Below, piece by piece: positions 3,473 to 27,606 of a DNA stretch of 64,000 nt; the stretch's first letter is position 1; every line of letters starts with the position of its first letter. Position numbers and translations under genes: made by a program. The notes under the pieces were generated by a model. That model had not been told where the DNA came from and ran no database searches. It saw only the letters and a program-made list of their open reading frames with translations. This stretch comes from Candidatus Levyibacteriota bacterium (GTDB lineage: Bacteria > Patescibacteriota > Microgenomatia > Levybacterales > GWA1-39-11), in contig DAIQMY010000002.1 in NCBI GenBank assembly GCA_036788695.1, positions 2,394-66,393 on the forward strand, written 5' to 3'.

Positions 3473-4980
3473 TAATTCTTGTTGTTTCCCTCTACTTTGC
3501 GACACGCTTAATAAATATAATGGGTCTTCCGCTCTTCACAGACGAAGCAATCTATGTTAGATGGTCGCAAATAGCTCATCAAGACGCAGCATGGAGATTT
3601 ATTTCCTTAACTGATGGAAAACAGCCATTGTTTATTTGGATTGCAATGAATATCATGCGCAGGGTTACAGATCCTCTACTTGCGGCGAGACTTGTTTCTG
3701 TTTTTGCAGGCTTTGCGACTCTTATTGGTATAACTCTTTTAACGCTTGAGATTTTTAAGAAGAAAAGGAATGGGGGAATAATAAATCAAATATTTGGTCA
3801 TTTGCTTGAGAATAAGCGTGTGGGACTTATTGTGGCTATACTCTATGTTCTGTATCCCTTTGCTCTTGTGTATGACCGGATGGCACTTTATGACTCATTG
3901 GTTGCGTGCGTAATGGTGTGGGCGTTATTTATTGAGGTGCTCCTTGTTAGATATGTACGGCTTGATTTGGCCCTGATATTGGGAGTAGTTATGGGGAGTG
4001 CAGTTTTGACAAAAACGTCAGGTTTCTTTTCTTTGTATCTTCTTCCTTTCTCGCTTCTCATTTTTGATTTTAAAAAAACAGGTTGGAGAAAAAAAATAGT
4101 AGAGTGGATGATTTATGCAATAATCGCAGGTGCAGTTGCGTACCTTATATATATGGTGCTTCGTCTTTCCCCCTTTTTCTATATAGTTGACGAAAAAAAT
4201 GCATTATTTGTATACCCCTTTAAGGAATGGATTAAACATCCTTTTACATATGCTCTTGGGAACTTTAAGGGGCTTACTGATTGGTTATTAGCATACATTT
4301 CACTTCCCATCTTATTTCTTTTTTTCTTGTCTTTCTTTTTGGGAAAGAAATACTTTATGGAAAAATTACTTCTGCTTGCATGGTTTGCAATTCCATTTAT
4401 AGCACTAGGTGTTTTTGGCAAGCTAGTTTATCCTAGATTTATTTTATTCATGACAATGCCAATACTTGTTTTGTCTGCATATTCTATAAATTTTTTGTTT
4501 GAAAAAATAAAAAATAAATTATTCTTTTTTGCATTTTTTACAGCAGTAGTATCATTTTTTGCTTACTCAGATTATTTTATTATTACTGACTTGTCCCGTG
4601 CACCTATTGCAAGTCCAGATCTTGGACAATATATTAATTCGTGGCCAGCCGGAGGAGGAGTTAAAGAGATGGTATCTTTTTTTGATCAAGAATCCAAGAA
4701 AGGGAAAATCTATGTTGCGACTCAGGGAACGTTTGGAAGTCTGCCAACCTACGCGCTTGAAATTTATCTGAATGAAAACAAAAATATTGAAAAGAGGGGA
4801 ATCTACCCGCTTCCCTCAGATTTACCAAGAGATCTGAAGGAGAAAGCATCAAAAATGAATGTATATTTTGTTTTTAATGATTCGGAAGATGCGCCGCCTT
4901 TGTGGCCGTTGACGCTTGTTGCAAAATATCAAAAAGGAATTGGTGATAGACACATGAGTATTTATAAAGTAAATCCGTGA
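3433..4980 (+). CDS. ArnT/GT83-like (PMT_2 superfamily) GT-C glycosyltransferase
   Basis: The loop 'LPLFTDEAIYVRWSQ' after TM1 is a DE-A-xY acid motif, as in ArnT/PMT. It is a 515-aa polytopic protein. Confidence 0.55.
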   Translation: MVFGKIRLSTILIIILVVSLYFATRLINIMGLPLFTDEAIYVRWSQIAHQDAAWRFISLTDGKQPLFIWIAMNIMRRVTDPLLAARLVSVFAGFATLIGITLLTLEIFKKKRNGGIINQIFGHLLENKRVGLIVAILYVLYPFALVYDRMALYDSLVACVMVWALFIEVLLVRYVRLDLALILGVVMGSAVLTKTSGFFSLYLLPFSLLIFDFKKTGWRKKIVEWMIYAIIAGAVAYLIYMVLRLSPFFYIVDEKNALFVYPFKEWIKHPFTYALGNFKGLTDWLLAYISLPILFLFFLSFFLGKKYFMEKLLLLAWFAIPFIALGVFGKLVYPRFILFMTMPILVLSAYSINFLFEKIKNKLFFFAFFTAVVSFFAYSDYFIITDLSRAPIASPDLGQYINSWPAGGGVKEMVSFFDQESKKGKIYVATQGTFGSLPTYALEIYLNENKNIEKRGIYPLPSDLPRDLKEKASKMNVYFVFNDSEDAPPLWPLTLVAKYQKGIGDRHMSIYKVNP

Positions 4981-7325
4981 GTAAGACTATTAAGAAATTA
5001 TTTATTCCGTGTATTTTGGTCATTATACCTCTGCTGTTTTTTTATAAAACAGTTGTATTTCAAAAAGTACCCTTTCCAGGAGATTTATTAGTTGGGAATT
5101 ATGAGCCCTATAAGTCAAACCCTAGTATAGGTGTAGCTCCGCATAAAGGACAAGGGGCAGATGTTGTGCGGGAACTCTATCCATGGAAGTTTTATACAAT
5201 TGATAGTTTAAAAAGTGGATTCTTTCCTCTCTGGAATCCTTATACTTTCTCAGGTAATCCTCACTTTGCCAATCTTCAATCAGGGGTATTATATCCGGTA
5301 AACATTCTATTTTTTATTCTTCCATATGTTCCTGCATGGACAATTTATATTATCCTACAGTTTGTGTTTCTAATGTTTTTCACATATTTATTTTTAAGAC
5401 AGATTAATCTATCAAAGGTAGCAAGTCTATTTGGATCAATTGCCTTTTCCTTTTCAGGGTTTATCACAGTTTGGGCCTGGTACGGAAATCTTGGTCATGC
5501 GTTGGCATTTCTTCCGCTCGTTTTTTATCTTATTGAAAAGATTTATAAACAACCCAAATGGTATTTATTCCCTTTTTTAATATGCGCATTAGTGTTTTCT
5601 ATCTTTGCAGGATACATACAGTATGTTATGTATATATATCTACTTTCATTTGCATATATATTTACACGATCCATTACGCAAAAGAAAAAAAGCTTAAAGC
5701 TTTTACTACTACTTATTTCCTGCTTTGTGATGGCAGGGCTACTTGGTGCAGTGCAACTTTTCCCGGTATTTGAGTTAGTAAATAACTCACTTCGCTCAAC
5801 ATATTCCTATCAGGTGTTACTTGAGAGGTTAATGCCTCCAGAGAGTATGATTACGTTGCTTGTACCTGATTTTTTTGGAAATCCCGCAACCATGAATTAT
5901 TTTCTTCGTGGTGGATCAAGTCTTGAGCGGGCAAGTTCTATTGGGGTTTGGCCACTTTTTTTTGTAGTGGTTGCGCTGTTTAGTAAAAAAACATTTTTTA
6001 GAAATTACTTTGCAATATCAGCACTGGTGATTTATATATCCGTTTTATCAATTCTTCCCATAGCATATTTTCACAGCATTGGGATCCCTTTTTTATCAAC
6101 AGGAATTCCAACACGGGCATTGTCTATTTTCTGTTTTTGTATGGCAGTTTTAAGTGCAATAGGTATGAATTCTTTTGTGAGGAATGAAGTGAGTAAAAAA
6201 ACGGTCGTTAAAATACTTATAGTTTTTATGAGTGTATTTGTTGGATTGTGGACTGTAACGTTTGTAAATCAGGACCCACATATGCTTATCTCAAGGAGAA
6301 ATTTAATTATTCCCACCCTCATTTTTACGATAGGAGCTTTCACACTCATGCTAAAGTTTAAAAAAAATAAACTTGCAGCATTCATTATCTTATTAACACT
6401 TGCAGAACTATTTTATTACTTTCAAAAATTTAATTCGTTTGTCCCCGTATCATATGTATATCCCTCATCGCAAATAACTGAAAAACTAAGATCTATACAA
6501 GGTATAGATAGGTTTTGGGGATATGGAAGTGCAAATATTGACTCAAATTTTCAATTGATTGAAAAAAACTATACAACTGCTGGGTATGATGCAATTTTTA
6601 GTAAAAGATATGGTGAATTTACCGCCGCCTCACATAACGGGAAAATCCCTCTGGAGGTACCGCGTTCTGTAGCAGATATTGTGGGAGGGTATGGGGTAAA
6701 TGACTTAAAGCAAAATCCTTATAGGCAGCGTGCACTAGATATAGCAGGGGTAAAATATGTCCTAAACAAAAAGGAAGATAAGGGGTTGGATAGCGCATTT
6801 GATACAAGAACGTATGATTTGATTTGGGAGGATGGCGGGTGGCAGATATACCTTAATAAAAACGTAGTGCCTAGGGTTATGCTAGTTGGTGACTATAAAA
6901 TAATAAAAAATAAAGAGGAGATAATAAAAAATCTGTATAATTTAAGGCTAAATCCTAGAGAGACTATTACCCTCGAAGAAAAATTACCGGGAAAAAGTAT
7001 AAAAACAGATGTAAGTGCAAAAGTTAGCGTAGAGAAATATAGTCCTAATAATATAATATTAAAAACCGAATCCAAAGAAGATCAAATAGTATATATTTCT
7101 GATAATTATTTTCCGGGTTGGCATGCAATTGTTGACGGAGTAGAGAAAAAGATATATCGGGCTAACTATACATTTAGAGCCATACCGGTTGAAGCAGGAA
7201 GGCATACAGTTTACTTATACTATTTCCCTGAATCATTAAAACTTGGTCTTATTGTAAGTATTTTTTCGTTTCTGTGTTTGATATTAATATGTCTCTTTGT
7301 TACGATAACTAAACAAAAACGGTAG
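4977..7325 (+). CDS. YfhO-family GT-C glycosyltransferase (paralog E1 of 3)
   Basis: N-terminus 'FPGDLLVGNYEPYKSN...WNPYTFSGNPHFANLQSGVLYP'. The 782 aa comprise a polytopic core, a C-terminal 'YFPGWHAIVDG...GRHTVYLYYFP' module and a final TM helix. The GTG start overlaps the upstream TGA as GTGA. Confidence 0.7.
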   Translation: MSKTIKKLFIPCILVIIPLLFFYKTVVFQKVPFPGDLLVGNYEPYKSNPSIGVAPHKGQGADVVRELYPWKFYTIDSLKSGFFPLWNPYTFSGNPHFANLQSGVLYPVNILFFILPYVPAWTIYIILQFVFLMFFTYLFLRQINLSKVASLFGSIAFSFSGFITVWAWYGNLGHALAFLPLVFYLIEKIYKQPKWYLFPFLICALVFSIFAGYIQYVMYIYLLSFAYIFTRSITQKKKSLKLLLLLISCFVMAGLLGAVQLFPVFELVNNSLRSTYSYQVLLERLMPPESMITLLVPDFFGNPATMNYFLRGGSSLERASSIGVWPLFFVVVALFSKKTFFRNYFAISALVIYISVLSILPIAYFHSIGIPFLSTGIPTRALSIFCFCMAVLSAIGMNSFVRNEVSKKTVVKILIVFMSVFVGLWTVTFVNQDPHMLISRRNLIIPTLIFTIGAFTLMLKFKKNKLAAFIILLTLAELFYYFQKFNSFVPVSYVYPSSQITEKLRSIQGIDRFWGYGSANIDSNFQLIEKNYTTAGYDAIFSKRYGEFTAASHNGKIPLEVPRSVADIVGGYGVNDLKQNPYRQRALDIAGVKYVLNKKEDKGLDSAFDTRTYDLIWEDGGWQIYLNKNVVPRVMLVGDYKIIKNKEEIIKNLYNLRLNPRETITLEEKLPGKSIKTDVSAKVSVEKYSPNNIILKTESKEDQIVYISDNYFPGWHAIVDGVEKKIYRANYTFRAIPVEAGRHTVYLYYFPESLKLGLIVSIFSFLCLILICLFVTITKQKR

Positions 7326-9023: not shown

Positions 9024-10718
9024 ATGCATACATTTATAGAAAAAAAAAGATATATTTTGCTTACTGTAATTTTTATTATTGGGCTATTTCTTCGTTTTTT
9101 TCTTCTTGGAACTAACCCTCCAAGTTTAAATTGGGATGAAGCATCAACGGGATACAACGCTTTTTCAATCTTAAAAACTGGAAAAGATGAATATGGAAAC
9201 TTTATGCCATTATCCATAAGGTCATTTGATGATTACAAGCCACCGCTTTATACGTATTTAGATGTGCCTTTTGTGGGGATATTTGGATTAACAGACTTTG
9301 CAGTAAGACTTCCCTCCGCGATACTAGGTACACTCACAATACTTGTGATTTATTTTCTTGTCCTGGAATTGTTTCCAAAGATACGAAAGACGCAGGAAGC
9401 GTTTTCTGAAAGTAATTTTCAGCAAGAAATAGCTCTTCTATCCGCATTCTTTTTTGCTGTTAGTCCATGGAGTTTGCAATTTTCTCGCTCCGCGTATGAA
9501 GGGAATATTGGATTATTTTTCTTACTCTCGGGTGTTTTATTTTTTCTTAAATCTGAAAAGAAACATATATATTTACTTTTTTCATCTATCTTATTTATTT
9601 GCGCCCTATATTCATATCATAGTTTTAGATTAGTAGTTCCATTATTAATTTTAGTAATGTCTACTCTTTTTTATCCTTATTTACTGAAAGCAAAAAAAAT
9701 GGCCATTGTCGCGTTTATGATTCTTGTATTATTTGCAATCCCTATTTATTCAAGCTTTGTAACAGCAGGAAGTGGAACTGGGAGCAGGCTCTCAATGGTT
9801 ACCATTTTTGGTGCATCTGAAAATTTAGACGCGTCAATTCGGGAGCTAGAGTATGACAGAAGTTACGGAGATTTTATTGGTGAGACATTTCACAATAGAC
9901 GCGTGGTACATTTTTTAGCTGCTGTAAAAGGGTACCTGGATCATTATAATCCTGATTTTTTATACCTGAATGGTGATGGGGGTAGGCAGCATCATGCGGT
10001 CAAATTCGGAATGATGTATCTTTTTGATTTGCCATTAATTATGGTGGGCGCAGTCATGCTTACTCGGAGAATTACACGACAGAAAATTTTATTTTTTACG
10101 ATCTTAGTGCTTGCTCCCTTGCCTTCTGCTATTACTACAGGAACTCCTCATCCGGTTCGTGCAATTGCAATGTTACCCGAACTATTAATACTTGCAAGTG
10201 TGGGAGCCGTATTTCTCATTTCGGAAATATCAAGAATAAAATACAGGGTATTAGGTCTAAAATTGAAATACGTGATATTCTCACTTCTGCTATTCGTATT
10301 TTCAGTTAATGGATTATATTATTTGCATCAATATTATATTCATACACCTATTGAGTATGGGGACTTCTGGCAATATGGATATAAAGAAGCGCTTGCAATT
10401 GCCGTAAAAAACGAAAAAAATTACGACAACATAGTATTTACCTATAAATACGATCAGCCATATATATATTATCTTTATTACAACAAAATAGACCCTAATT
10501 GGTACCATAGCAATTGGAATTTTACAAAAAATGGAGAAATGCCAAGGTTTGAGCGCAGAATAGGAAAATATATATTTAAAAATATTAATTTAGGTGAAGA
10601 AAGAAAAATAAAAAATTCGTTACTTTTTGGAACTCCAGATGAAATACCAGAAAATGAGTCATTCAAGGAAATTAAATTTCTAAATGGTGATACCGCATTC
10701 AGAATAACAAAAACATGA
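9024..10718 (+). CDS. PMT_2/GT39-like GT-C glycosyltransferase (F2)
   Basis: 'LNWDEASTGYNAFSILKTGKDEYGNFMPL'. ATG 9024 is preceded by GAGG at 9012-9015. The ORF track gives TTG 9009. Confidence 0.7.
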   Translation: MHTFIEKKRYILLTVIFIIGLFLRFFLLGTNPPSLNWDEASTGYNAFSILKTGKDEYGNFMPLSIRSFDDYKPPLYTYLDVPFVGIFGLTDFAVRLPSAILGTLTILVIYFLVLELFPKIRKTQEAFSESNFQQEIALLSAFFFAVSPWSLQFSRSAYEGNIGLFFLLSGVLFFLKSEKKHIYLLFSSILFICALYSYHSFRLVVPLLILVMSTLFYPYLLKAKKMAIVAFMILVLFAIPIYSSFVTAGSGTGSRLSMVTIFGASENLDASIRELEYDRSYGDFIGETFHNRRVVHFLAAVKGYLDHYNPDFLYLNGDGGRQHHAVKFGMMYLFDLPLIMVGAVMLTRRITRQKILFFTILVLAPLPSAITTGTPHPVRAIAMLPELLILASVGAVFLISEISRIKYRVLGLKLKYVIFSLLLFVFSVNGLYYLHQYYIHTPIEYGDFWQYGYKEALAIAVKNEKNYDNIVFTYKYDQPYIYYLYYNKIDPNWYHSNWNFTKNGEMPRFERRIGKYIFKNINLGEERKIKNSLLFGTPDEIPENESFKEIKFLNGDTAFRITKT

Positions 10719-12346
10719 AAAAATTTATTGCTCGGCACTCAACTCTTTTTTTTCTCATCGGAGGATTTTTTATTTGTCTCTCTATTACTCTCCCATATTT
10801 TCATAACGGATATTTCCCGACACATGACGGTGAGTGGGCGGTGGTACGAGCAAGCGAGATGTTCAGGGAGATACGAGACTATCAATTTCCTCCCAGATAT
10901 AGTGGTGTTTTGAATTCAGGTTATGGATATCCGCTTTTTAACTTTGCGTATCCATTCCCGTATTATATTACAACCATTATACACGCAGCTCATTTTGGAT
11001 TTGTAGATAGTGTAAAAATAATTTTTGTATCAAGCGTATTTATCTCTTTTATTGGAATGTTTTTTTTGTCTCGCGTATTTTGGAAAAGTTCACTAGCAGG
11101 CTTTTTAAGCGGAATTTTCTATATCCTGCTTCCTTATCATCTAGTTGACCTCTATGTGAGAGGCTCAATAGGTGAGTCAATTGCATTTGCTCTCTATCCC
11201 CTTATTTTACTCAGTTGTCTGGGGATTTTATATAAGAAATATATGAACGTGTCTTATTTTTCGCTCAGTATTTTGTCAGGAGCATTAATATTGAATCATA
11301 ATATTTCTGCGGTATATTTTGGATTAATATTCGCGTTTTACCTGATAGCACTTTTTTTGGCAAAGCGGTACAAAGAGGCAGTAACAACTTTTACTGGGTT
11401 TGCATGGGGTGTTCTTATATCAGCATTTTTCTTTGTTCCAGCACTATTAGAAAAGAAGTATATTAAGCTTTCAAAAATTCCAATTGCTGATAGAAATTTA
11501 TACTTTGTTACCTTGCAAAAGCTGTTAGTTCCAACATGGGGATACGGAGCCCCAATTGATGCAAACCCATTTACATACCAGATAGGTATCCCACAGCTTG
11601 TAGGTTTCTTTTCATCAATTTTTATCGTAAAAAAATTGAGAGCTGTTGAACAATTTATTATATATTCATTTATTTTTTTAACTGTTGTTCTTTCTTTCAT
11701 GATGTTTTCATTTACGTCCTTTATGTGGAGATTGCCTCTTCTTTCAGATATTAATTATCCTTGGACACTGCTTTTGCCGATAGGTTTTCTTGTATCTTTT
11801 TTATCGGGATCGCTTATTTATGTGAAATATAAAAAAATTATAGTTCCAACTTTACTATTGGCAGTAATATTTTTATATGGTTTTTACGCAAGACCTAGTG
11901 GATACATAAATAAAGGGGATTTGTATTACCTTACAAACCATGCAACAACAACCTCATCAAACGAGCTGATGCCATTATGGGTGAAAGATGAACCTGTGAA
12001 TATGTTTAAACAAAAAATTGAGGGGAAGGGTGAAGTTTCCTCATTAACATATAACTCCAAACGAATTGAATTTCTATTTACCTCAGACATATCGCAGAGA
12101 ATAGTTGTAAATCAGATTTATTATCCAGGATGGAGTGCAACAGTTAATGACCGTAGGGTAAAAATTTACTATAATAATAAAAACGGCTTAATCAATTTTG
12201 AAGTGCCTAAAGGTAAAAGCAAAGTCAGGCTGTCTTTTTCAGAAATACCCTTACGACGCGCCATGAATATTACATCTCTTGCGGCATTTGTTCTCTTATT
12301 TTTAGTATTTGCCATTGTAGAATTAAGGAAGCGCATTAAAAAATAA
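10715..12346 (+). CDS. GT-C-type membrane protein, PTPS-related (PF10131-like) family (paralog G1 of 4)
   Basis: 'FPTHDGEWAVVRASE...FPPRYSGVLNSGYGYPLFNF...DLYVRGSIGES'. The C-terminal module 'YYPGWSATVNDRRV' plus a final TM helix matches the YfhO paralogs. Confidence 0.55.
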   Translation: MKKFIARHSTLFFLIGGFFICLSITLPYFHNGYFPTHDGEWAVVRASEMFREIRDYQFPPRYSGVLNSGYGYPLFNFAYPFPYYITTIIHAAHFGFVDSVKIIFVSSVFISFIGMFFLSRVFWKSSLAGFLSGIFYILLPYHLVDLYVRGSIGESIAFALYPLILLSCLGILYKKYMNVSYFSLSILSGALILNHNISAVYFGLIFAFYLIALFLAKRYKEAVTTFTGFAWGVLISAFFFVPALLEKKYIKLSKIPIADRNLYFVTLQKLLVPTWGYGAPIDANPFTYQIGIPQLVGFFSSIFIVKKLRAVEQFIIYSFIFLTVVLSFMMFSFTSFMWRLPLLSDINYPWTLLLPIGFLVSFLSGSLIYVKYKKIIVPTLLLAVIFLYGFYARPSGYINKGDLYYLTNHATTTSSNELMPLWVKDEPVNMFKQKIEGKGEVSSLTYNSKRIEFLFTSDISQRIVVNQIYYPGWSATVNDRRVKIYYNNKNGLINFEVPKGKSKVRLSFSEIPLRRAMNITSLAAFVLLFLVFAIVELRKRIKK

Positions 12347-12354
12347 AAAACTAT

Positions 12355-14100
12355 ATGGGAAAATATAAAAAAGTATTCTTGAAGTTATTGCCATTTTTAC
12401 TCGTCACTGGGTTATGTATCTTTTCACTTTTTCCGCTCTTTCATCCTGGTTTTTTTACCATGCATGACGATGAGCAAATTGCAAGATTATATGATTTATC
12501 TCAGGCTCTTCATGGAGGAGAGTTTCCGCCTAGAATTTCGCCAAACTTAGGTTTTGGTTACGGATATCCATTTTTTAATTTTTACCCATCATTTGCATAT
12601 TATGTGGGTGAACTTTTTGTTCTTTTCGGATTTTCACTCATTACATCTACCAAGCTTATGATTGCTACATCCTTTGTTTTATCTGCAGTATTTATATACC
12701 TTTTCGTAAAGGAATTGTTTGGAAAAACTGCAGGTGTTGTGTCTGGCGTTTCCTATACCTATGCCTCATATCACGCAGTAGATGTATATGTTAGAGGTGC
12801 ATTTGCTGAGTCGTTTTCATTTGTATTTATTCCTCTCTTGTTTTACGCAAGTTATAGATTAGCTGTCACATTGAAATATAAATATATCCTCATAGGAGCA
12901 TTGGCAGTTGCGGGATTGGTACTAAGTCACAACTTAGTAGCATTCATGAGCTTTCCCTTTATTGCTATTTGGCTTTTGTATCTTTTGCTTATTTCCAGGC
13001 AAAAGAGGGATTTTGTGTTATTTTCAGCTCTGTTATTCTTACTAGGACTTGGACTGTCTTCATACTTTTGGTTGCCATCATATTTTGAGAGAAATAATAC
13101 GTTAGTAAATATACTCACTTCAGAGCTTGCAAACTATAATCTACACTTTGTTTGCACATATCAATTATGGGATTCTATGTGGGGGTACGGTGGTTCTATT
13201 CCTAGTTGTTTTGACGGTATTTCATTTGAGATTGGGAAGCTTGTTCTTATACTGTCAATTGCCTCAGCAGCACTTTCTATACTTGGAATATTTTTCGCAA
13301 GACGGAGGAAAAATGGAGACATGAGTCAAATGTTATATATTCTTATATTTTTCTTTATGCTGTGTCTTAGTATATTTCTCATGGTGAAGTTCTCACGCCC
13401 CATATGGGATTTAATAGTTCCCCTGTGGTATGTGCAATTTCCATGGCGCTTTTTATTGTTTGCATCATTCTTTACATCTGTTTTAGCTGGAAGCATAGTG
13501 TTCTTTATTAAGAATAAAAGAATACAGATAGGTGTTGCTGCGGGTATTATTATTTTGCTAATCGCGGTTAATTTCTCTAAATTTGCTCCTGAACGTTTTT
13601 TTAACGCTGATGACCGTGATTATACGAATTTTGAAAAGATAAGATGGGAAACTAGTAGTCTTGCATATGAATATGTACCAAAGGGAGTTAAAACAAAAAA
13701 ATCAGATATTGGCACAACGCTTGTTGATATTAATAAAAACGAAATTTCCACTCGTTCAGCAGAGATAAAAAGCGGTGAAATTTTGTTTAAAGAAATTGTG
13801 AACAAGACATATTATAAACAGTTTGATGTGAATGTGTTAACAAATGGTGTCTTGCAGATAAATACCTATTCTTTTCCGGGCTGGAAGGTATTTGTAAACG
13901 GAAAAGAAGTTGTATATCGTGATAATAACAAACTTAAGCTGATTCAAATAGATCTTTCAAAGGGTGAGTATAGAGTTGAAGCTCGGTTTGTGAATACGCC
14001 AATTAGAACTATTGGAAATTCTATATCGGGAATTAGTATAATAGTACTAATTGGCTGTGGGATATTCATCACTTACAGAAAAAGATATGGCAAAACTTAA
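12355..14100 (+). CDS. GT-C-type membrane protein, PTPS-related family (G2)
   Basis: 'FTMHDDEQIARL...FPPRISPNLGFGYGYPFFNFY...DVYVRGAFAES' and C-terminal 'FPGWKVFVNGKEV'. Confidence 0.55.
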   Translation: MGKYKKVFLKLLPFLLVTGLCIFSLFPLFHPGFFTMHDDEQIARLYDLSQALHGGEFPPRISPNLGFGYGYPFFNFYPSFAYYVGELFVLFGFSLITSTKLMIATSFVLSAVFIYLFVKELFGKTAGVVSGVSYTYASYHAVDVYVRGAFAESFSFVFIPLLFYASYRLAVTLKYKYILIGALAVAGLVLSHNLVAFMSFPFIAIWLLYLLLISRQKRDFVLFSALLFLLGLGLSSYFWLPSYFERNNTLVNILTSELANYNLHFVCTYQLWDSMWGYGGSIPSCFDGISFEIGKLVLILSIASAALSILGIFFARRRKNGDMSQMLYILIFFFMLCLSIFLMVKFSRPIWDLIVPLWYVQFPWRFLLFASFFTSVLAGSIVFFIKNKRIQIGVAAGIIILLIAVNFSKFAPERFFNADDRDYTNFEKIRWETSSLAYEYVPKGVKTKKSDIGTTLVDINKNEISTRSAEIKSGEILFKEIVNKTYYKQFDVNVLTNGVLQINTYSFPGWKVFVNGKEVVYRDNNKLKLIQIDLSKGEYRVEARFVNTPIRTIGNSISGISIIVLIGCGIFITYRKRYGKT

Positions 14101-18140: not shown

Positions 18141-19793
18141 ATGAATATTCTTTACAAATATATAGGACTTATAGTAGTTATTAGTATAGGGTTATTGCCA
18201 GTTTTACCATTATTTCACGAAGGGTTACCAATTACGCATGACGGTCAAGACCATGTTGCACGGATTGCAAATTTTTATTTGAGTCTATCCGAGGGAAACA
18301 TTATTCCTCGATGGGCAGCAAATCTCAATTGGGGGTATGGGCACCCTATATTAATGTTTTTATATCCCTTACCTTCATATTCAGCATCTTTTTTTCATTT
18401 TCTTGGTTTTTCATTCGTTGACTCAGTAAAGATAATTTTTGGGTTAAGCTACATACTTAGTGGAATTACGATGTATTTATTTGTGAGGAATGTGTTCTCT
18501 GAAAAGGCTGGAATTTTGTCTGCAGTGCTTTATATGTATGCTCCCTACAGGTTTGTTGATTTTTATGTTCGAGGAGCAATAGGTGAACATGTTGCATTTA
18601 TTTTTGCCCCACTCATTTTATATTGTGTTTATAAATTAGCAAAAACTAGTTCTCCTCTATTTTTATTACTCGGTGGACTATCAATAACAGGTTTACTTTT
18701 GTCCCATAATGCTCTGGCATTAATGTTTTTGCCAATAATTGTTTTTTACATGTTATTTCTTGTGGCAGTAAGCAAGCAGAGAGTTAGACTTTTTATTTTC
18801 TACTCACTTTCTCTTCTTATAGCTTTTGGTCTATCCTCATTCTTTTTAATCCCTGCTTTTTTTGAAGGCAAATACACATTAAGAGATATTGTGACAAGTA
18901 ACGGAGAGTATAAAACTGGATTTGTTAACTTTATTCAATTCGTAATTCCTTCATGGAGCTATGGGGGGAGTACGTTTTTATCCAAACAAATAGGGTTGGT
19001 TCAAATAAGCGCGATTGTGGTTGCGTCAGTGATTTTTTTTAAAGCACATAAAAAGAAAAATATTGCTTTATACATTCTTTTCTCAGTTTCTCTTTTGATA
19101 TCCCTTTTTCTCATGACTCCGTATGCAGATTTTCTTTGGGAGAGAATAACGATCCTTCAAAAATTTCAATTTCCTTGGAGGTTACTGTCTGTAGTAGTTC
19201 TTGCATCTGCCGTTCTTCCGGCTTTTGCATTTCCTTATAAGAAAAAAAGCACGAAAGCAATGTTTTATCTCATTCTGATGTGTACGTGCTCTATTATAGT
19301 ATATTACCCATACTATCAAGCTCGTGAGTACTTAATTAAGGATCAGAGATTTTATTCACAGATATATAAAAGTACGACAGATACTGGTGAGAGTAGCCCT
19401 ATATGGTCAGTACGGTTTATGGAAAAGGAAGCAAAAAAAAGCGCAGAGATTATTGAGGGTTCAGGGAACATAACTCAGGATAAATGGAAAACTACACAAC
19501 ATGAATATACTATTCTGTCTGAGACGAACAGTGTACGAATTAGAGAAAACACGTTGTATTTCCCGAATTGGGAAGTTTATGTAGATGGTAAAAAAACGAA
19601 CATAGAATTTCAAGATAGGCTAAACAGAGGACTTATTACCTATAGGGTGCCACAGGGCAAACACAAAATAAGTATTCAGTTTAATGATACGAAGCTAAGA
19701 ACTGTAGCAAACATTATGACCTTCTTAACAGTTGGAGTTATTCTTCTTGCAATAATTGTTTTCAGAATTTGGAGGCATATAAAGAGATCATGA
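18141..19793 (+). CDS. GT-C-type membrane protein, PTPS-related family (G3)
   Basis: 'LPITHDGQDHVARIANF...IPRWAANLNWGYGHPILMF...DFYVRGAIGEH' and C-terminal 'YFPNWEVYVDGKKT'. Confidence 0.55.
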   Translation: MNILYKYIGLIVVISIGLLPVLPLFHEGLPITHDGQDHVARIANFYLSLSEGNIIPRWAANLNWGYGHPILMFLYPLPSYSASFFHFLGFSFVDSVKIIFGLSYILSGITMYLFVRNVFSEKAGILSAVLYMYAPYRFVDFYVRGAIGEHVAFIFAPLILYCVYKLAKTSSPLFLLLGGLSITGLLLSHNALALMFLPIIVFYMLFLVAVSKQRVRLFIFYSLSLLIAFGLSSFFLIPAFFEGKYTLRDIVTSNGEYKTGFVNFIQFVIPSWSYGGSTFLSKQIGLVQISAIVVASVIFFKAHKKKNIALYILFSVSLLISLFLMTPYADFLWERITILQKFQFPWRLLSVVVLASAVLPAFAFPYKKKSTKAMFYLILMCTCSIIVYYPYYQAREYLIKDQRFYSQIYKSTTDTGESSPIWSVRFMEKEAKKSAEIIEGSGNITQDKWKTTQHEYTILSETNSVRIRENTLYFPNWEVYVDGKKTNIEFQDRLNRGLITYRVPQGKHKISIQFNDTKLRTVANIMTFLTVGVILLAIIVFRIWRHIKRS

Positions 19794-20929
19794 AGAGAAT
19801 TATTTTTTATGTAATTCTTTTGTTTCTAGTATTGTATAGACCAGTTTCTTATATTGCATCACACCAGGACTTATATTTCTCAAGAACTTACGATACAAGA
19901 TATGAATCACTGAAGAAATTGTATTATTCTTCGCAGTATGTGGTTCGGAAGAATCCTGTAATTATACCTGATGAAACTACGGAAGCATTTGCGGCTGGAG
20001 CTTTTCTTCGCGGAATGAATCCTATACATATCATTCATGATCATCCGCCTCTTGGAAAATATATACTTTCCGTATCCATTCTTTTATTTAATAACGAAAA
20101 CACAATAATAATTTTTTCCTTCACAGCTTCTCTTATTGGCATATATTTAATAATGAAGTCTATAACACGTAACAATCTGTATTCGCTTGTTCCGGTTGCA
20201 ATTTTCGTAAATGAACCATTAATGTTTACGAAGCTTGTGTACACCCCGATACCAGAAATTATTCAATTGCCTTTTATACTGTTTACGGTCTATTTTTTTC
20301 TGCAAATGATAAAAGATCGAAAGAGGGTGTACGTATGGGCAGCCTTGACATCTGTTTTCTTAGGATGTGTTATTAGTACCAGATTTTTTGCATTAGGGGC
20401 AGTTCTTCTTTTTTCACAAGTACTGTTTTTAGTTTATAAAAAAAATTACAGAACGCTTCTGAGTTACCTTTTTATGCTACCTCTTTCATGTGTTGTTTTA
20501 CTTGTTTCGTATTCCAAGACGATTGAAGAAAGTAGTTCTTTGGTAAAACCTTTTGCTGTTCAAAAATATATACTTTCCTATCATTCATCAAAGTTTATTA
20601 AAGCATTTACGGTATGGGATTTATTGTTCTTCAACAGATGGCACACGTGGTGGGGTGAGCAAAAAATTACGACAGATGTAAACTGGATTATTCTTTGGCC
20701 AATTTCATCAATACTATCCTTTTCAATTATTGTTTTATCAACTCTCAAAAAAATAAAAATTTTACCCCAGGAAGAGGTAATTCTTCTTTGGGTTTTTCTC
20801 TATCTTTGTATGTTATCAGTTGGATATACTTCAGTAAGATATTTTCTGCCGCTCATCCCATTTTTATATGTTCTTGCTTTGTCTTTATTATATAGGTTAC
20901 AAATAGTAAGGAGAATATTTTCTGTATGA
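19790..20929 (+). CDS. Short PMT/GT39-like membrane glycosyltransferase with 'HPPLGKY' (paralog C2)
   Basis: 'IIHDHPPLGKYILSVS'. The ATG at 19790 overlaps the upstream TGA as ATGA. The ORF track gives TTG 19769. Confidence 0.5.
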   Translation: MKRIIFYVILLFLVLYRPVSYIASHQDLYFSRTYDTRYESLKKLYYSSQYVVRKNPVIIPDETTEAFAAGAFLRGMNPIHIIHDHPPLGKYILSVSILLFNNENTIIIFSFTASLIGIYLIMKSITRNNLYSLVPVAIFVNEPLMFTKLVYTPIPEIIQLPFILFTVYFFLQMIKDRKRVYVWAALTSVFLGCVISTRFFALGAVLLFSQVLFLVYKKNYRTLLSYLFMLPLSCVVLLVSYSKTIEESSSLVKPFAVQKYILSYHSSKFIKAFTVWDLLFFNRWHTWWGEQKITTDVNWIILWPISSILSFSIIVLSTLKKIKILPQEEVILLWVFLYLCMLSVGYTSVRYFLPLIPFLYVLALSLLYRLQIVRRIFSV

Positions 20930-23241
20930 TAAAAAAAATCTTACCAATCGGTATAATTATTGCAGTGTGGGCTATATTCTCTATACCTTTCTTCATGTAT
21001 GGTAGGGTACCGTTTCCATCTGATTACCAGGTAGCTAATTTTTCGCCATGGAGCGCATATCCGGAGTTTTATGGACCAGTTAAAAATGAATCAATGCCTG
21101 ATGTTATTGGACAAATTTATCCTTGGAAGATGTTTACAATTGAAACAATTAAGACTGGCACTATTCCATTTTGGAATCCGTACAGTTTTTCCGGAACGCC
21201 TCATCTTGCAAATTATCAATCGGCGGTCTTATCACCATTTAATCTAGGATTTTTCCTGTTTCCTTTTGTTGATTGGTGGAGTTTTCTTATAATTCTTCAG
21301 CCCTTGTTAGCCGGAATCTTTACATACATGTTTTTAAGGTCTCTTAAGGTTGCATCTCCAGGCAGTTTAATTTCTTCACTTTCCTTTATGTTCTGTGGAT
21401 TTATTACATCATGGATGGCTTATGGAACATTAGGATACGCAATACTTTTTTTGCCACTGGCACTTTATGCAATAGAGAAGTATAAAGACACAAAAAGTTC
21501 TCGATATTTAGTTCTTTTATGTCTAACTATCCCACTATCATTTTTTAGCGGACATTTTCAAACAAGTATTTATTTTTTAATTTTTACTTTTGCATATATG
21601 GTTTTTATAACTTACTTGAAGAAAGATTTAAGACTTTTCTTGAACCTATCCTTGTCTCTATTTTTTGGTTTTTTATTAGTGCTTCCTCAACTACTTCCCT
21701 CTATGGAGCTTTACTCACAGACTATAAGGAGTACTATTAATCAAAAAACAGAAGCTATACCCTGGGGGTATTTACCTACTATTATCGCTCCAGATTATTT
21801 TGGGAATCCTGTGACGCGGAATGCATGGTTTGGACATTACGCAGAGTGGAATGGATATATTGGTTTAATACCAATATTCTTTGCTTTTTACGCATTTTCT
21901 TTATTCCGAAAGTCAACGGTTTTCTTTTTCATGGGTGCCTTGGGCATTGCATTTTTATTCGCTTATGACACGCCAGTGCTTGACGCGCTCGTTTTGCTAA
22001 AAGTTCCTGTCCTCTCAACGAGTGCTGCATCCCGAGTTATTGTTTTATTTTCGTTCTCTGCGTCTGTTCTTGCAGGGTTTGGATTAAATAGACTAATTGA
22101 TGATTTAGGAAAAAAACATGTAGGAAAATCAATTCTTTTTCTAGGAATTTTTGCGTTTCTATTTTTGATTCTATGGGTAATAGCCATACAAGGCATGTTT
22201 GCTCCAGACCAATTTAAGACGGTTGCTTTTTCAAATTTAAAATTTCCTAGCATTTTATTTTTAAGCTTTGTAGTGGGGCTACTTACTCTAATTTTTACAA
22301 GAAAAAAAAGAATAGTAACAGTAATTATATGCTTTTTTGTTTTTTTGGTAGCACTTGAGATGTTACGATTTACGACAAAATGGATGCCATTTTCCCAAAA
22401 AGATCGAGTCTATCCATCAGCGCCTGTTACAAAATTCTACCCAAAAATTGAAGGTTATAATCGGGTATTTGGAAATTTTGGGGCAGAGGGGTCATTGTAT
22501 TATCATCTTCCTACCATAGAGGGATACGACCCTGTGTATATAAGAAGGTATGGACAGTTGATTGGATCATTACAGGATGGGAAGCTTTCAGAATCGTATA
22601 GATCTGTTGTTGAAATGCCTCTTGCAGGAAAGTACACCCTGCTGGGAGCGAATCTGTTGGGAATAAAATATTTTATACATAAAATTTCTGATGGGCAGAA
22701 CGTATGGGAATTTCCGTTTTGGAAGTATAATACGCAATCAATTAAGCTTATATACAAAGATCCATATTACGAGGTGCTTGAGAATACAAATGCTTTCCCT
22801 CGTGTATTTTTTGTTGAAAATATTGTTGTGAAAAAGGACGCACAAGAACTTCTCTCAGAGATGTTTAAAAAAAACACCAATCTTAGAAAGACTGCGATAG
22901 TAGAGGATGAGTTGAAGGAAATTAAAGCAGGAGTAGCTGACCGTGCACAAATTCAAATGTACGCGCCCAACAAAGTAAAAATACGCACAGAAGGTAAGAA
23001 GACATCACTATTAGTGCTAACAGACCCCTATTATCCTGGGTGGGAGGCATTTATTGATGGACGGAAAACGAAAATATATAGAGTCGACTTTGCGCTTAGG
23101 GGTATAGTTGTTCCGTCAGGAGTACACCATGTCGAGTTTGTATATGTTCCTTACAGTTTCTGGGTAGGTGTATGTGGTGCGGGTTTAGGTATAATAGGTA
23201 TTCTGGGGTTAGTTATTTTGAATAATAAAAAAGAAAAATGA
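20926..23241 (+). CDS. YfhO-family GT-C glycosyltransferase (E2)
   Basis: 'WNPYSFSGTPHLANYQSAVLSP' and the C-terminal 'YYPGWEAFIDGRKT...GVHHVEFVYVP' module plus TM. An SD 'AAGGAG' sits 10 nt upstream, and there is an ATGA overlap. Confidence 0.7.
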   Translation: MIKKILPIGIIIAVWAIFSIPFFMYGRVPFPSDYQVANFSPWSAYPEFYGPVKNESMPDVIGQIYPWKMFTIETIKTGTIPFWNPYSFSGTPHLANYQSAVLSPFNLGFFLFPFVDWWSFLIILQPLLAGIFTYMFLRSLKVASPGSLISSLSFMFCGFITSWMAYGTLGYAILFLPLALYAIEKYKDTKSSRYLVLLCLTIPLSFFSGHFQTSIYFLIFTFAYMVFITYLKKDLRLFLNLSLSLFFGFLLVLPQLLPSMELYSQTIRSTINQKTEAIPWGYLPTIIAPDYFGNPVTRNAWFGHYAEWNGYIGLIPIFFAFYAFSLFRKSTVFFFMGALGIAFLFAYDTPVLDALVLLKVPVLSTSAASRVIVLFSFSASVLAGFGLNRLIDDLGKKHVGKSILFLGIFAFLFLILWVIAIQGMFAPDQFKTVAFSNLKFPSILFLSFVVGLLTLIFTRKKRIVTVIICFFVFLVALEMLRFTTKWMPFSQKDRVYPSAPVTKFYPKIEGYNRVFGNFGAEGSLYYHLPTIEGYDPVYIRRYGQLIGSLQDGKLSESYRSVVEMPLAGKYTLLGANLLGIKYFIHKISDGQNVWEFPFWKYNTQSIKLIYKDPYYEVLENTNAFPRVFFVENIVVKKDAQELLSEMFKKNTNLRKTAIVEDELKEIKAGVADRAQIQMYAPNKVKIRTEGKKTSLLVLTDPYYPGWEAFIDGRKTKIYRVDFALRGIVVPSGVHHVEFVYVPYSFWVGVCGAGLGIIGILGLVILNNKKEK

Positions 23242-24300: not shown

Positions 24301-25374
24301 ATGAAAATAGGAATTTACGATCCTTATCTTGATGACATAGGGGGCGGCGAAAAATATATGCTTTCAATTGCAGAAGCCTTATCTATGGGAAATGATGTAA
24401 GTGTGTTTTGGAATAACAAGGAAGATTTTGAAAATGTTAAAAAAAGATTCTCTCTCAGGCTTTCAAATGTCAGGATAGAAAAAAACATTTTTGGGAAAAA
24501 CGTGTCTTTTTGGGAAAGGTATAAAATATCAAGGGAATATGATGTACTTATTGTTCTTTCAGACGGAAGTATTCCTCTGGTATCTTCTCGTCTACTTATT
24601 CATTTGCAAAGACCAGTTCCTCACATTAGACTATCGATACTTTCAAGAATTAAAAAAGCACGTGTTAAAACTTTTTTTTGCAACTCTTATTACACAAAAT
24701 CATTTATTGATAAATCATTTAAAATTAACTCCAAGGTGATCTATCCTCCAATTACAATATCAGCAAGAAAATTAAAAAAAGAAAATATTATCTTACACGT
24801 TGGAAGATTTCGTATTATGGACAAAGAGCATGAAGTAAGGGATTTTAAAAAGCAATATATGTTGCTTCAAGTATTTAAGCAGTTAGTGGATCAAGGTCTT
24901 ACTGGATGGACTCTTTATATGGTTGTTTCTGTGCGAAAAGAAGATCTTGATATATTTCATGAAATAGTACAAAACTACAAAAAATACCCAATTGAGTTTA
25001 AAATAAATAAGGGAAGCTACGATTTATGGAATTACTACTCACTGGCAAAAATATATTGGCACGCTTCAGGTTATGGGGAAGATTTAGTAAAAAATCCAGA
25101 GTATGCTGAACATTTTGGAATATCTACTGTGGAAGCTATGGGTGCAGGGGTAGTCCCTGTTGTAATTAGTGCTGGTGGACAAAAGGAGATAGTAGAGGAT
25201 GGCGTGAATGGTTTTACCTGGTCATCTGAAGAAGAATTTAAGGAGAAGACAATGAATCTTATTAAGTCAAAAAATTTACTCGATCAAATGTCTGCAAAGG
25301 CAATCATAAGATCTAAGGACTTCACATATGATTCCTTTGCAAAGAAAATCATAGAAATGGTTGGCAGAAAATGA
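24301..25374 (+). CDS. GT4 (GT-B fold) glycosyltransferase (K1)
   Basis: The C-terminal 'EHFGISTVEAMGAGVVPVV...EIVEDGVNGF' is the classic GT4 E-x7-E region. Confidence 0.8.
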   Translation: MKIGIYDPYLDDIGGGEKYMLSIAEALSMGNDVSVFWNNKEDFENVKKRFSLRLSNVRIEKNIFGKNVSFWERYKISREYDVLIVLSDGSIPLVSSRLLIHLQRPVPHIRLSILSRIKKARVKTFFCNSYYTKSFIDKSFKINSKVIYPPITISARKLKKENIILHVGRFRIMDKEHEVRDFKKQYMLLQVFKQLVDQGLTGWTLYMVVSVRKEDLDIFHEIVQNYKKYPIEFKINKGSYDLWNYYSLAKIYWHASGYGEDLVKNPEYAEHFGISTVEAMGAGVVPVVISAGGQKEIVEDGVNGFTWSSEEEFKEKTMNLIKSKNLLDQMSAKAIIRSKDFTYDSFAKKIIEMVGRK

Positions 25375-27599
25375 AGAAATATAAATTCCTTTTACCATTT
25401 TTATTTATTTTTTCTACTGTAATAATTTTCTTTTATCCACTCTTTGCATATGGAAAACTTCCCATACCTGCTGACACGATAGTAGGTTTATATTACCCAT
25501 TTCGGGATATTTACTCACAAACAAATCCGAATGGACTACCGTATAAAAACTTTTTAGTAACTGATCCGGTACGTCAGCAGTATCCATGGAAGAATTTATC
25601 TGTTTCACTTCAGAAGAAATTTCAACCTCCTTTATGGAATCCATACGAGATGGCGGGAACACCCTTGCTTGCAAACTTTCAGAGCAGTGTTTATTACCCA
25701 TTCAATTTTCTTTTGTATCTTTCTCCATTCTCAGTTTCATGGTCAATATTTATTTTAATTCAGCCTCTTTTAGCTGGAGTATTTCTCTATTTGTATTTAC
25801 GCAGCTTAAAACTTGATATGAGCGCGTCTCTACTTGGTGCACTAATTTTTGCATACAGTGGGTTTTGTATGGCGTGGCTTGAGTGGGGCGTTATAGTGCA
25901 TACTGCTTTGTGGTTACCTCTCATACTTTTGGCAATAGATAAGGGGTTTATAAAAAAGGATATGAGATGGAAGGCTGTCTTTATCCTTTCTTTGTGTGCC
26001 AGTTTTTTTGCCGGGCACCTGCAGACATTTTTTTATATTTTTCTGTTCACTGTATTTTATTTTATTGCAAGATTGTTTACGCAAAAAAGAAAAAAAATAA
26101 TTGTTTTTTCATTTCTATTTGATCTATTGGTTGTGGGCGTTATTACCTGTATTCAGTGGATGCCTACACTGCAGTTTATTCTTCTTTCAAACAGATCGCA
26201 TGACCAGTCATTCTTGCAGCCGGGATGGTTTATTCCCTACCAAAACTTAGTTCAATTTGTTGCGCCTGATTTTTTTGGAAACCCAGCAACATTAAATTAT
26301 TTTGGAGTTTGGAACTACGGTGAATTTGTGGGGTATATAGGAATCGCGTCATGCATCCTAGCCTTATACGCTCTATTCTATAGGCATGATAAGAAGACGT
26401 GGTTTTTTTTGTCAGGTATAATTATCTCATTCATTTTTGCACTTCCCAACTTTATTTCTCAGCTCCCTTTCTTTTTACATATACCCTTTCTCTCAACAGC
26501 TCAGCCTACAAGGCTACTATTTGTAATAGATCTATGTCTTTCTGTCCTTGCAGCTTTAGGCTTGGATTTGTTACTAAAAAAAAGAAAAAAGATATGGGTT
26601 CCCGTAATAGTAATAGGAATTGTTTTGGTTTTTCTTTGGGGGGTTACATTGCAAGGAAAGGAAATATATGCAAACGCAGAAGACATTTTAGTTTCAAAAA
26701 ATAATCTTAAATTGCCCACTCTCTTATTTTTTATATCAGCAGGCATACTTTTAGGTTACGAGTATATAAAAAATAAAAAGATTCGTACAGTACTAATTGT
26801 ATTTCTTTTTCTGATCGTAGTGTTTGACTTATTCAGGTTTGGGTGGAAATTTACACCTTTTACAGACAAAAAATACTTATACCCTGAAACAAGTGTAATC
26901 ACTTATCTTCAAAATCAAAAAGGAATTTTTAGGATTGCTGTAGCAGATAATAGAATTTTACCCCCAAATTTTTCAGTAGTCTACAAACTTTCCTCAATTG
27001 AAGGATATGATCCATTATATCTTTTAAATTACGCCACTTTTATTGCTTCAAACGAGAGAGAAGACCATACTATAACTCCTCCATTTGGTTTTAACCGAAT
27101 CATAACTCCAAGAAATCTTAATTCACAAGCAATAGATTTTTTAAACGTTAAATTCATTCTTTCATTAACTGAAAATAACGATCCTAAATTTAAAAAAGTA
27201 TATCAAAAAGGAGAAACAAGAATTTATGAGAATAGAAATGTAATGAGCCGCGCATTTTTTATAGAAGAACTGGTAACTCTTAGAACACAAGAAGAGATTG
27301 CTAAAAAAATACACCTAGTTGACTTAAGAAAAGTAGCAATTGCAAAGGCTACCGTAAGTTATACGCAGAAGTACAAGGCAGGCAAAGCACAAATTTTGTT
27401 TTATTCGCCAAACAAGGTAATAATAAAAACGAGTAATACGGAAAAAGGCTTTTTAGTTCTATCAGATGTTTACTATCCAAGTTTCCATGCTACAATTGAT
27501 TCGGTTGCGGTAGATATTAGAGAAGTAAATTTAGCATTTAGAGGGGTTGTTGTTCCCGCAGGAGAGCATATAGTAGAGTTTAATGCTCGCATGTTTTAA
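25371..27599 (+). CDS. YfhO-family GT-C glycosyltransferase (E3)
   Basis: 'WNPYEMAGTPLLANFQSSVYYP' and C-terminal 'YYPSFHATIDSVAV...GEHIVEF'. There is an ATGA overlap. Confidence 0.7.
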   Translation: MKKYKFLLPFLFIFSTVIIFFYPLFAYGKLPIPADTIVGLYYPFRDIYSQTNPNGLPYKNFLVTDPVRQQYPWKNLSVSLQKKFQPPLWNPYEMAGTPLLANFQSSVYYPFNFLLYLSPFSVSWSIFILIQPLLAGVFLYLYLRSLKLDMSASLLGALIFAYSGFCMAWLEWGVIVHTALWLPLILLAIDKGFIKKDMRWKAVFILSLCASFFAGHLQTFFYIFLFTVFYFIARLFTQKRKKIIVFSFLFDLLVVGVITCIQWMPTLQFILLSNRSHDQSFLQPGWFIPYQNLVQFVAPDFFGNPATLNYFGVWNYGEFVGYIGIASCILALYALFYRHDKKTWFFLSGIIISFIFALPNFISQLPFFLHIPFLSTAQPTRLLFVIDLCLSVLAALGLDLLLKKRKKIWVPVIVIGIVLVFLWGVTLQGKEIYANAEDILVSKNNLKLPTLLFFISAGILLGYEYIKNKKIRTVLIVFLFLIVVFDLFRFGWKFTPFTDKKYLYPETSVITYLQNQKGIFRIAVADNRILPPNFSVVYKLSSIEGYDPLYLLNYATFIASNEREDHTITPPFGFNRIITPRNLNSQAIDFLNVKFILSLTENNDPKFKKVYQKGETRIYENRNVMSRAFFIEELVTLRTQEEIAKKIHLVDLRKVAIAKATVSYTQKYKAGKAQILFYSPNKVIIKTSNTEKGFLVLSDVYYPSFHATIDSVAVDIREVNLAFRGVVVPAGEHIVEFNARMF

Positions 27600-27606
27600 A
27601 AAAAGT

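Follow-up and report, generated by a model that had tools for sequence, protein, structure and literature searches.

A shared C-terminal β-sandwich in seven YfhO-like GT-C proteins of a Candidatus Levyibacteriota bacterium is probably an inherited, mainly structural element

We analysed a stretch of 64,000 nucleotides (nt), here called the window, from a Candidatus Levyibacteriota bacterium (GenBank assembly GCA_036788695.1, contig DAIQMY010000002.1, positions 2,394 to 66,393 of the forward strand), in which seven open reading frames (ORFs) encode membrane proteins that end in the same C-terminal module: four of group G (10715, 12355, 18141 and 46613) and three YfhO-like ones of group Y (4977, 20926 and 25371). 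With a probability of roughly two in three, we take the seven to be paralogous YfhO-like GT-C glycosyltransferases and their shared C-terminus to be an ancestral, vertically inherited element with a mainly structural role. Judged by their family, the seven proteins would be polyprenyl-phosphate-sugar-dependent GT-C glycosyltransferases of a single YfhO-like superfamily, in a long form (Pfam YfhO, ~740–780 amino acids [aa]) and a short form (~545–580 aa) that would bear the PF10131 label ‘PTPS_related’ only through its N-terminal core. The ancestral C-terminus would be an extracytoplasmic, 7–8-stranded β-sandwich of ~75 aa, after which, in most members, one transmembrane (TM) helix leads the chain back into the membrane. 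The long form would have an extra α/β ectodomain of ~175 aa and, because its hydrophobic core is ~85 residues longer, probably a few more TM helices.

All seven ORFs contain the motif [YF][YFS]P[GNS][WF]-x-[AV]-x-[VI]-[DN]-[GDS], followed further on by P-x-G-x-H/K-x-[VI]. Its [YF][YFS]P[GNS][WF] start lies at aa 469, 505, 473 and 472 of 10715, 12355, 18141 and 46613, and at aa 711, 702 and 701 of 4977, 20926 and 25371, i.e. ~70–80 residues from the C-terminus (about 40 in the anchor-less 25371). A hidden Markov model (HMM) built from the three Y modules recovered the C-termini of all four G proteins (E 1.5e-8 to 5.5e-4) and one built from the four G modules recovered all three Y C-termini (E 2e-8 to 1.3e-3), while no further module was found by these cross-family searches among the 50 window ORFs (next best E 0.2). 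A six-frame scan of the whole window likewise gave exactly seven copies (next hit at an independent E-value of 1.5). In hhalign, the C-terminal regions of 54 G-type and 53 Y-type sequences aligned with 98.8% probability (E 6.7e-17, 97 columns), pairing G aa 437–535 with Y aa 670–766, the hydrophobic helix included. The similarity between G and Y modules is one of homology, not of composition. A preliminary description of this DNA had named these same seven proteins as sharing the module, which is borne out; its estimate of roughly 70 aa is corrected to about 75 aa (7–8 strands) for the folded part, the conserved region around the motif spanning ~75–90 aa and the whole measuring about 105 aa with the helix. 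A word-indexed protein search with a 90-aa module profile returned only five fragments, which carried no architecture information.

The fold was modelled with AlphaFold2 (AF2) on two excised C-termini, from alignments of 30 (G) and 22 (Y) sequences. The G piece (10715 aa 395–543; mean predicted local distance difference test score [pLDDT] 83) contained seven strands (residues 46–52, 56–63, 67–74, 79–83, 86–88, 98–103 and 106–114) and then a 31-residue helix. The Y piece (20926 aa 481–771; mean pLDDT 82.5) contained a mixed α/β domain of ~180 aa, eight strands (193–200, 203–210, 214–221, 226–230, 233–235, a short one at 238–240, 244–249 and 252–260) and a 28-residue helix. With an offset of +147, taken from the sequence-based hhalign alignment, the strands of the two models coincide one for one. 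The two modules are thus the same domain, and the unrelated folds that would have refuted the preliminary description are not seen. The discrete C-terminal β-sandwich ahead of a TM anchor, as first proposed, is recovered in both the models and the hhalign comparison.

The single hydrophobic helix that had been described after each module is present in six of the seven proteins. ORF 25371 is the exception: its protein stops at ...EFNARMF*, four residues past the last strand, with no C-terminal hydrophobic segment in the hydropathy scan, and the start of the GT2 gene 27583 overlaps the end of the ORF by 17 nt (protein end at 27596). A database homolog, P0278 (741 aa, 34% identical to 25371), likewise ends right after the last strand, so that an anchor-less YfhO subfamily seems to be conserved. 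Elsewhere the helix is nearly universal: it comes after the final module in all 120 G homologs, in all 120 Y homologs and in 141 of the 150 representatives from the database search described below. A Ser (small/polar) conserved in at least 70% of the terminal helices hints at helix–helix packing. In Bacillus subtilis YfhO a large extracytoplasmic region lies between the last two TM helices (PMC5836110), and the Y ORFs follow this topology except for 25371, which lacks the last helix: hydropathy and the AF2 model place the core of 4977 and 20926 up to ~aa 460–480, then an ectodomain of ~265–300 aa and the last TM helix.

The preliminary description had assigned the two groups to two different GT-C families with differing N-terminal cores. 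The motifs on which it relied are indeed present, HDG and YVRG in the G proteins and WNPY.FSG.P..AN.QS in the Y proteins, but the cores are homologous, the G and Y TM cores matching in hhalign with 99.3% probability (E 2e-20, 271 columns). Alignments of window sequences only gave 97.6% (E 3e-12, 297 columns) for the core and a second, collinear match over the module (95%, E 3.8e-8). Against the PMT_2-type GT-Cs of the window, G reached E 1.3e-6 over only 140 columns and Y gave no significant match in the window-only profile comparison, whereas the Y-core HMM directly matched the G proteins 18141 (E 4.6e-11) and 46613 (E 1.7e-6). Since the G–Y core similarity lies far above that of either group to PMT_2, these profile comparisons indicate that G and Y are sister groups, much closer to each other than to PMT_2-type GT-Cs, and the division into two different families does not stand in the sense that shuffling would require. 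Both groups have the general features of GT-C enzymes: hydropathy gave about 9–13 hydrophobic segments per protein (at least eight TM helices being expected), and an acidic residue occurs in the first extracytoplasmic loop (H37-D38 invariant in the 54 G sequences, D59 in the 53 Y sequences), with a putative catalytic role.

The family models agree with this grouping. All three Y ORFs exceed the gathering cut-off of Pfam YfhO (PF09586, 28.5 bits; scores in Table 1). Against PTPS_related (PF10131, cut-off 26.4 bits), a GT-C family of clan CL0111 (PMC7801869) whose function is uncharacterised, 10715 and 18141 score above and 12355 and 46613 below the cut-off. Against the whole of PF09586, 18141 is matched by its core and 46613 by its module only, 12355 remaining below the cut-off; 18141 scores higher with the YfhO core (45.9 bits) than with PF10131 (35.2 bits). 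The G proteins match PF10131 over model positions 1–311 of 621 only, its C-terminal half (~312–621) being matched by none of them, and the excised G C-termini give no PF10131 hit at E ≤ 10; a location of the module inside PF10131's own C-terminal half was accordingly rejected. All seven excised C-termini instead match Pfam YfhO positions ~711–835, and the NCBIfam models of Streptococcus mutans PgfM1 and PgfM2 match the Y modules through their own C-terminal ends. A curated family model thus already includes the module, and at least one enzyme that has been studied contains it, PgfM1 having been experimentally implicated in protein O-glycosylation (PMC12041528). On these model matches it would be the already catalogued C-terminus of the YfhO-like GT-C superfamily, and the G proteins, which lack the PF10131 C-terminal half and have C-termini matching YfhO, would be better described as short YfhO-like enzymes.

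The YfhO family includes the enzymes of B. subtilis and Staphylococcus aureus (N-acetylglucosamine transfer to lipoteichoic acid [LTA]) and of Listeria (wall teichoic acid [WTA]), as well as Streptococcus pyogenes PgtC2 and S. mutans PgfM1/PgfM2 (protein O-glycosylation). The window proteins resemble it in that all seven match the C-terminal ~90–120 model positions, that the Y ORFs pass the family threshold, and that GT2 polyprenyl-phosphate-sugar synthase genes adjoin the Y ORFs. They differ from it in the G proteins, whose core is shorter and which are without the ~175 aa α/β ectodomain, in the missing last TM helix of 25371, and in their host, a bacterium of the candidate phyla radiation (CPR; Levybacteria-like). 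In detail, Y has the additional ectodomain at aa ~481–655; G has a linker of only ~40 aa with a nearly invariant motif of its own, and Pfam YfhO positions ~400–710 are absent from all G proteins.

The alternative that fares best, and one compatible with vertical descent, sees in the module a domain that binds carbohydrate or recognises the glycan or protein acceptor, much like a carbohydrate-binding module (CBM); we consider it unlikely, albeit with a real chance of being right. An extracytoplasmic β-sandwich on a glycosyltransferase would suit such a role, and some weak structural matches lie in this direction. Foldseek against the PDB gave no match at E ≤ 1e-3 for either the G or the Y model. 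The best neighbours of the G module (E 0.014–0.1, 70–110 columns, root-mean-square deviation 3.2–4.6 Å, probability 0.96–1.0, identity 7–22%) were accessory C-terminal β-sandwiches of glycoside hydrolases (2rdy_A, E 1.4e-2; GH29 fucosidases, GH30, and GH127/GH146 HypBA1), and accessory domains of this kind are generally regarded as structural, not sugar-binding. The likeness is one of generic sandwich topology and gives no sign of shared function or ancestry. The Y ectodomain model had as its top match, and as its only PDB neighbour with any signal, the GT-C enzyme AftD (6w98_A, E 6.4e-3 to 2.4e-2, 18–21% identity, 83–105 columns), which itself carries CBMs; this match is a lead only, as the Foldseek output gives the aligned region of neither protein. 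None of the listed Foldseek matches was described as a CBM, and no Pfam CBM family matched the excised C-termini even at E ≤ 10. PDB sequence searches with the full Y and G proteins, the seven-sequence module, the Y ectodomain and 33-sequence module-plus-TM profiles returned nothing significant, the best match being a PEGA-like ‘PG..V.(L/V)DG...G...L.PG.Y’ stretch (9k1u_D) at a non-significant E of 0.23.

Conservation within the module argues in the same sense. Across 33 diverse modules (the 31 database-derived ones being <40% identical among themselves), only the P and W of YYPGW and the G of P-x-G-x-H were at least 90% conserved. P and W belong to the strand 3–4 connection and G to the hairpin turn, and no conserved charged, polar or aromatic cluster suggestive of a sugar site was found across the 33 modules. 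Judged on similarity and conserved surface together, the module did not class as a CBM in the CAZy sense. The characterised acceptors of the YfhO family are also unlike one another, comprising LTA and WTA (PMC5836110, PMC8035078) and Ser/Thr-rich disordered protein segments (PMC12041528). As the module is kept across enzymes with such unrelated acceptors, it would not be the determinant of acceptor specificity, and the evidence leans against a role of this kind. We infer instead a chiefly structural role: placed above its TM helix at the outer membrane face, the module would serve as a pedestal or clamp that keeps the extracytoplasmic part of the enzyme positioned over the first-loop active site, perhaps also contributing a generic wall to the path of the acceptor, and would not be a glycan-binding domain that sets specificity.

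Two further conserved elements were noted outside the module. The G-specific motif YYLTN-x-ATTTSSNE(L/Y)(M/T)P(L/I)WV occupies 11924–11983 (ORF 10715 aa 404–423), with equivalents in 12355, 18141 and 46613, and lies after the final TM helix of the core, ahead of the module. The low pLDDT of the motif in the excised model suggests that it probably packs against the core, and we consider it more likely than the β-sandwich to be an element in contact with the substrate. The Y ectodomain (ORF 20926 aa 481–660) contains an invariant G533-Y534-D535 and a conserved R541-Y542-G543 (EGYD..Y..RYGEF).

The shared module had originally been explained by domain shuffling, in which a mobile cassette of periplasmic β-sandwich and TM helix moved between two unrelated GT-C scaffolds, a reading that we now find very unlikely. 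In Pfam terms the G proteins do appear chimeric (PF10131 at the N-terminus, PF09586 at the C-terminus) and the module is a self-contained fold. However, the cores to which it is attached are homologous and belong to sister groups, the Pfam YfhO model itself includes the module, and core and module, which are collinear, have diverged between G and Y to about the same extent (16% and 18% identity respectively). At E ≤ 1e-3, an exhaustive search with the seven-module profile recovered 39,593 clusters of proteins (50%-identity representatives), of which 5,559 reached E ≤ 1e-10. Among the best 150 of these 39,593 clusters, whose architecture was inspected, the order was core-(ectodomain)-module wherever a core was recognised. 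In identities taken from MAFFT and hmmalign alignments, the nearest relative of a module shared its core type in 325/326 cases, including the diverged window paralogs 12355, 18141 and 46613. The module–helix junction is family-specific (‘F-x-E-T-P-x-R’ in G and ‘Y-x-P-x-S-F-x-x-G’ in Y), and in the window the presence of the module goes strictly with the type of core (7/7 G/Y ORFs). Core homology, collinearity, equal divergence and co-segregation together argue for vertical descent and not shuffling; the pattern fits co-inheritance from an ancestor that would already have had core, module and anchor, and shuffling is not required. About ten other window ORFs with GT-C-type Pfam matches (nine PMT_2/PMT, one GT87) lack the module, contrary to the suggestion that it might be common to the whole system. 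We also considered whether G and Y genes of this genome had recently swapped modules and rejected this, every window module being nearest to its own core type.

Proteins of 940–3,330 aa among the best 150 were mostly tandem repeats of the core-module unit, with up to four modules. P0246, P0247, P0248, P0275 and other database proteins, up to 3,329 aa in length, contain two to four such tandem units of G or Y type. Either true fusions or read-through in gene calling could account for them; in the former case they would be multi-catalytic GT-C polyproteins.

A chance or purely compositional resemblance, for which the low GC content (34% over the 64 kb) and the modest module pairwise identities (20–28%) might speak and which the preliminary description had itself named as the outcome that would undo it, is refuted by the reciprocal HMM hits confined to 7/50 ORFs, the hhalign match and the identical strand register of the AF2 models, with high-GC relatives also showing the motif, and is left with practically no likelihood.

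Several points weigh against an ancestral, mainly structural element as we propose it. The packing of helix and module on the core is deduced from models that comprise the excised C-termini only, and glycan binding is still conceivable for a β-sandwich beside a GT-C active site; a review has speculated that S. aureus YfhO may have a domain outside the cell that binds carbohydrate (PMC8035078). Some members can dispense with the anchor, as 25371 and P0278 do without the TM helix. The nearest-neighbour sample is biased, being made up of homologs of two queries and the top 150 profile hits, and with the best 150 of 39,593 clusters inspected, rare transfers to other scaffolds are possible.

A possible structural parallel outside the family is mycobacterial AftD (PDB 6W98), whose soluble part ends in a ‘structural β-sandwich’ and re-enters the membrane by a single helix (TM12), and which also carries CBMs (bioRxiv 10.1101/2019.12.22.885152). 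The two resemble each other in having soluble domains followed by a single TM helix, in addition to the Foldseek match of the Y ectodomain. They differ in that this match lies above E 1e-3, that no sequence similarity is found even at E ≤ 10, and that AftD is missing from the top 50 Foldseek matches of the G model. A bolder proposal, which we hold to be rather improbable, is that β-sandwich and re-entry helix are an ancient required element of a large GT-C branch (YfhO, PTPS-related and possibly AftD), serving as acceptor-side wall or lateral gate for the polyprenyl-phosphate-linked donor. If this were true, ~40,000 uncharacterised clusters would share one mechanistic module that is in no solved structure yet.

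Table 1. Positions in the window of the seven ORFs, their C-terminal modules and terminal TM segments, with the matches recorded for each.
Feature	Positions	Strand	Description and evidence
ORF 10715	10715..12346	+	G-type GT-C, 543 aa: short YfhO-like core, linker with ATTTSSNELMPLWV motif, module, TM anchor; PF10131 44.3 bits, model positions 5–298 only; excised C-terminus matches Pfam YfhO positions 739–825, 35.5 bits
ORF 10715 module	11987..12253	+	six-frame HMM 106 bits; AF2 7 strands aa 440–508, pLDDT 88–98
ORF 10715 terminal TM helix	12248..12340	+	aa 512–542; AF2 helix residues 118–148 of excised model; hydropathy peak aa 513–537
ORF 12355	12355..14100	+	G-type GT-C, 581 aa; PF10131 24.3 bits (below cut-off), weak PMT_2 match; core, G-core HMM (built here) E 1.9e-113
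ORF 12355 module	13732..14001	+	six-frame HMM 87.9 bits; Pfam YfhO positions 760–825, E 0.0064
ORF 12355 terminal TM	14020..14076	+	aa 556–574; hydropathy scan
ORF 18141	18141..19793	+	G-type GT-C, 550 aa; core matches Pfam YfhO directly, 45.9 bits, positions 78–397; PF10131 35.2 bits; Y-core HMM E 4.6e-11
ORF 18141 module	19422..19694	+	six-frame HMM 97.1 bits; Pfam YfhO positions 756–829, 29.0 bits
ORF 18141 terminal TM	19713..19769	+	aa 525–543; hydropathy scan
ORF 46613	46613..48250	+	G-type GT-C, 545 aa; PF10131 18.4 bits; Pfam YfhO 31.8 bits via module only, aa 449–508 against positions 761–822; excised C-terminus 28.6 bits
ORF 46613 module	47903..48151	+	six-frame HMM 91.5 bits
ORF 46613 terminal TM	48170..48226	+	aa 520–538; hydropathy scan
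ORF 4977	4977..7325	+	YfhO-family GT-C, 782 aa: core, ~175 aa α/β ectodomain, module, TM anchor; Pfam YfhO 122.4 bits; C-terminal matches to NCBIfam PgfM2 and PgfM1 models
ORF 4977 module	6975..7238	+	six-frame HMM 101.9 bits; Pfam YfhO positions 746–835, E 3.6e-16
ORF 4977 terminal TM	7251..7307	+	aa 759–777; hydropathy scan
ORF 20926	20926..23241	+	YfhO-family GT-C, 771 aa; Pfam YfhO 101.9 bits
ORF 20926 module	22903..23160	+	six-frame HMM 105.6 bits; AF2 strands aa 673–740, pLDDT about 86–97
ORF 20926 terminal TM helix	23152..23235	+	aa 743–770; AF2 helix residues 263–290 of excised model; hydropathy peak aa 747–765
ORF 25371	25371..27599	+	YfhO-family GT-C, 742 aa; module present, terminal TM anchor absent; Pfam YfhO 66.1 bits
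ORF 25371 module	27345..27596 (up to stop codon)	+	six-frame HMM 93.0 bits; Pfam YfhO positions 748–821, E 3.3e-5

Nearly all window ORFs encode glycosylation functions. The forward strand holds every ORF of at least 150 aa except one, and many ORFs overlap start-to-stop. The closest database relatives of the studied ORFs (95–96% identity) come from Candidatus Levybacteria/Levyibacteriota and other Patescibacteria, as do many of the more distant ones, and homologs of 20926 are titled ‘YfhO family protein’ in Levybacteria and Patescibacteria records. In addition to the seven YfhO-like ORFs, the GT-C census of the window comprises nine ORFs with PMT_2/PMT matches and one with a GT87 match, three of these ten scoring below the Pfam threshold; the polytopic ORFs 2345, 3433, 19769, 29305, 45513 and 49224 had no Pfam hit. 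The window also encodes ~10 GT2 genes, GT1/GT4 genes, sugar-nucleotide enzymes and two flippase-type genes (14806, MOP-type, and 50408). GT2 genes at 440, 14051, 28548 and 51639 resemble the polyprenyl-phosphate sugar synthases PgfS, ArnC and AglJ, with all matches under the equivalog cut-offs. GT2 genes lie immediately downstream of the Y ORFs 20926 and 25371 (23238–23984, 27583–28551 and 28548–29261), so that Y ORFs are paired with a GT-A polyprenyl-phosphate-sugar synthase gene of the CsbB, GtrB or PgfS type. These neighbouring synthase-like genes and the MOP-type flippase support a GT-C function. The gene set resembles the published scheme of multi-component transmembrane glycosylation, which comprises a GT-A synthase, a flippase and a GT-C (PMC8035078), although the flippase there is of GtrA type and here of MOP type.

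Some other features of the window were observed. Positions 1–64000 form approximately one unbroken same-strand glycosylation island of a CPR (Levybacteria-like) genome; related contigs are only ~0.6 Mb, and the island may make up a large fraction of the genome. The sole minus-strand ORF of at least 150 aa (39434–41029) encodes a weak PMT_2-type membrane protein, inverted in a co-directional cluster. Further paralogous polytopic sets are 2345–3472 with 19769–20929, 1173–2348 with 45513–46616, and 37938–39437 with 39434–41029 and 41757–43238. Within these sets the C-terminal ends are alike (e.g. ...PRYLLLLLPF / ...RYFLPLIPF and ...PWYFLLVLPF / ...PWYAIWLIPF), Pfam matches are mostly absent or weak, and none contains the module. 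ORF 45007–45516 (169 aa), embedded among GT-C genes, has a signal-peptide-like N-terminus and a DUF5667 match (32.5 bits).

What is new here is limited to recognising CPR proteins that carry the PF10131 label as short forms of YfhO-like enzymes, and to delimiting their C-terminal domain; the module would be an ordinary feature of a known family and reveals neither a new mechanism nor a new kind of system. For the family, this corrects an illusion of annotation, in that CPR proteins labelled ‘6-pyruvoyl-tetrahydropterin synthase-related’ would be short YfhO-like GT-Cs with the β-sandwich and anchor of the long form. It also delimits a very widespread domain (39,593 clusters at 50% identity) with neither a solved structure nor an experimentally characterised function, and it provides clean domain boundaries that are usable in tractable YfhO enzymes.

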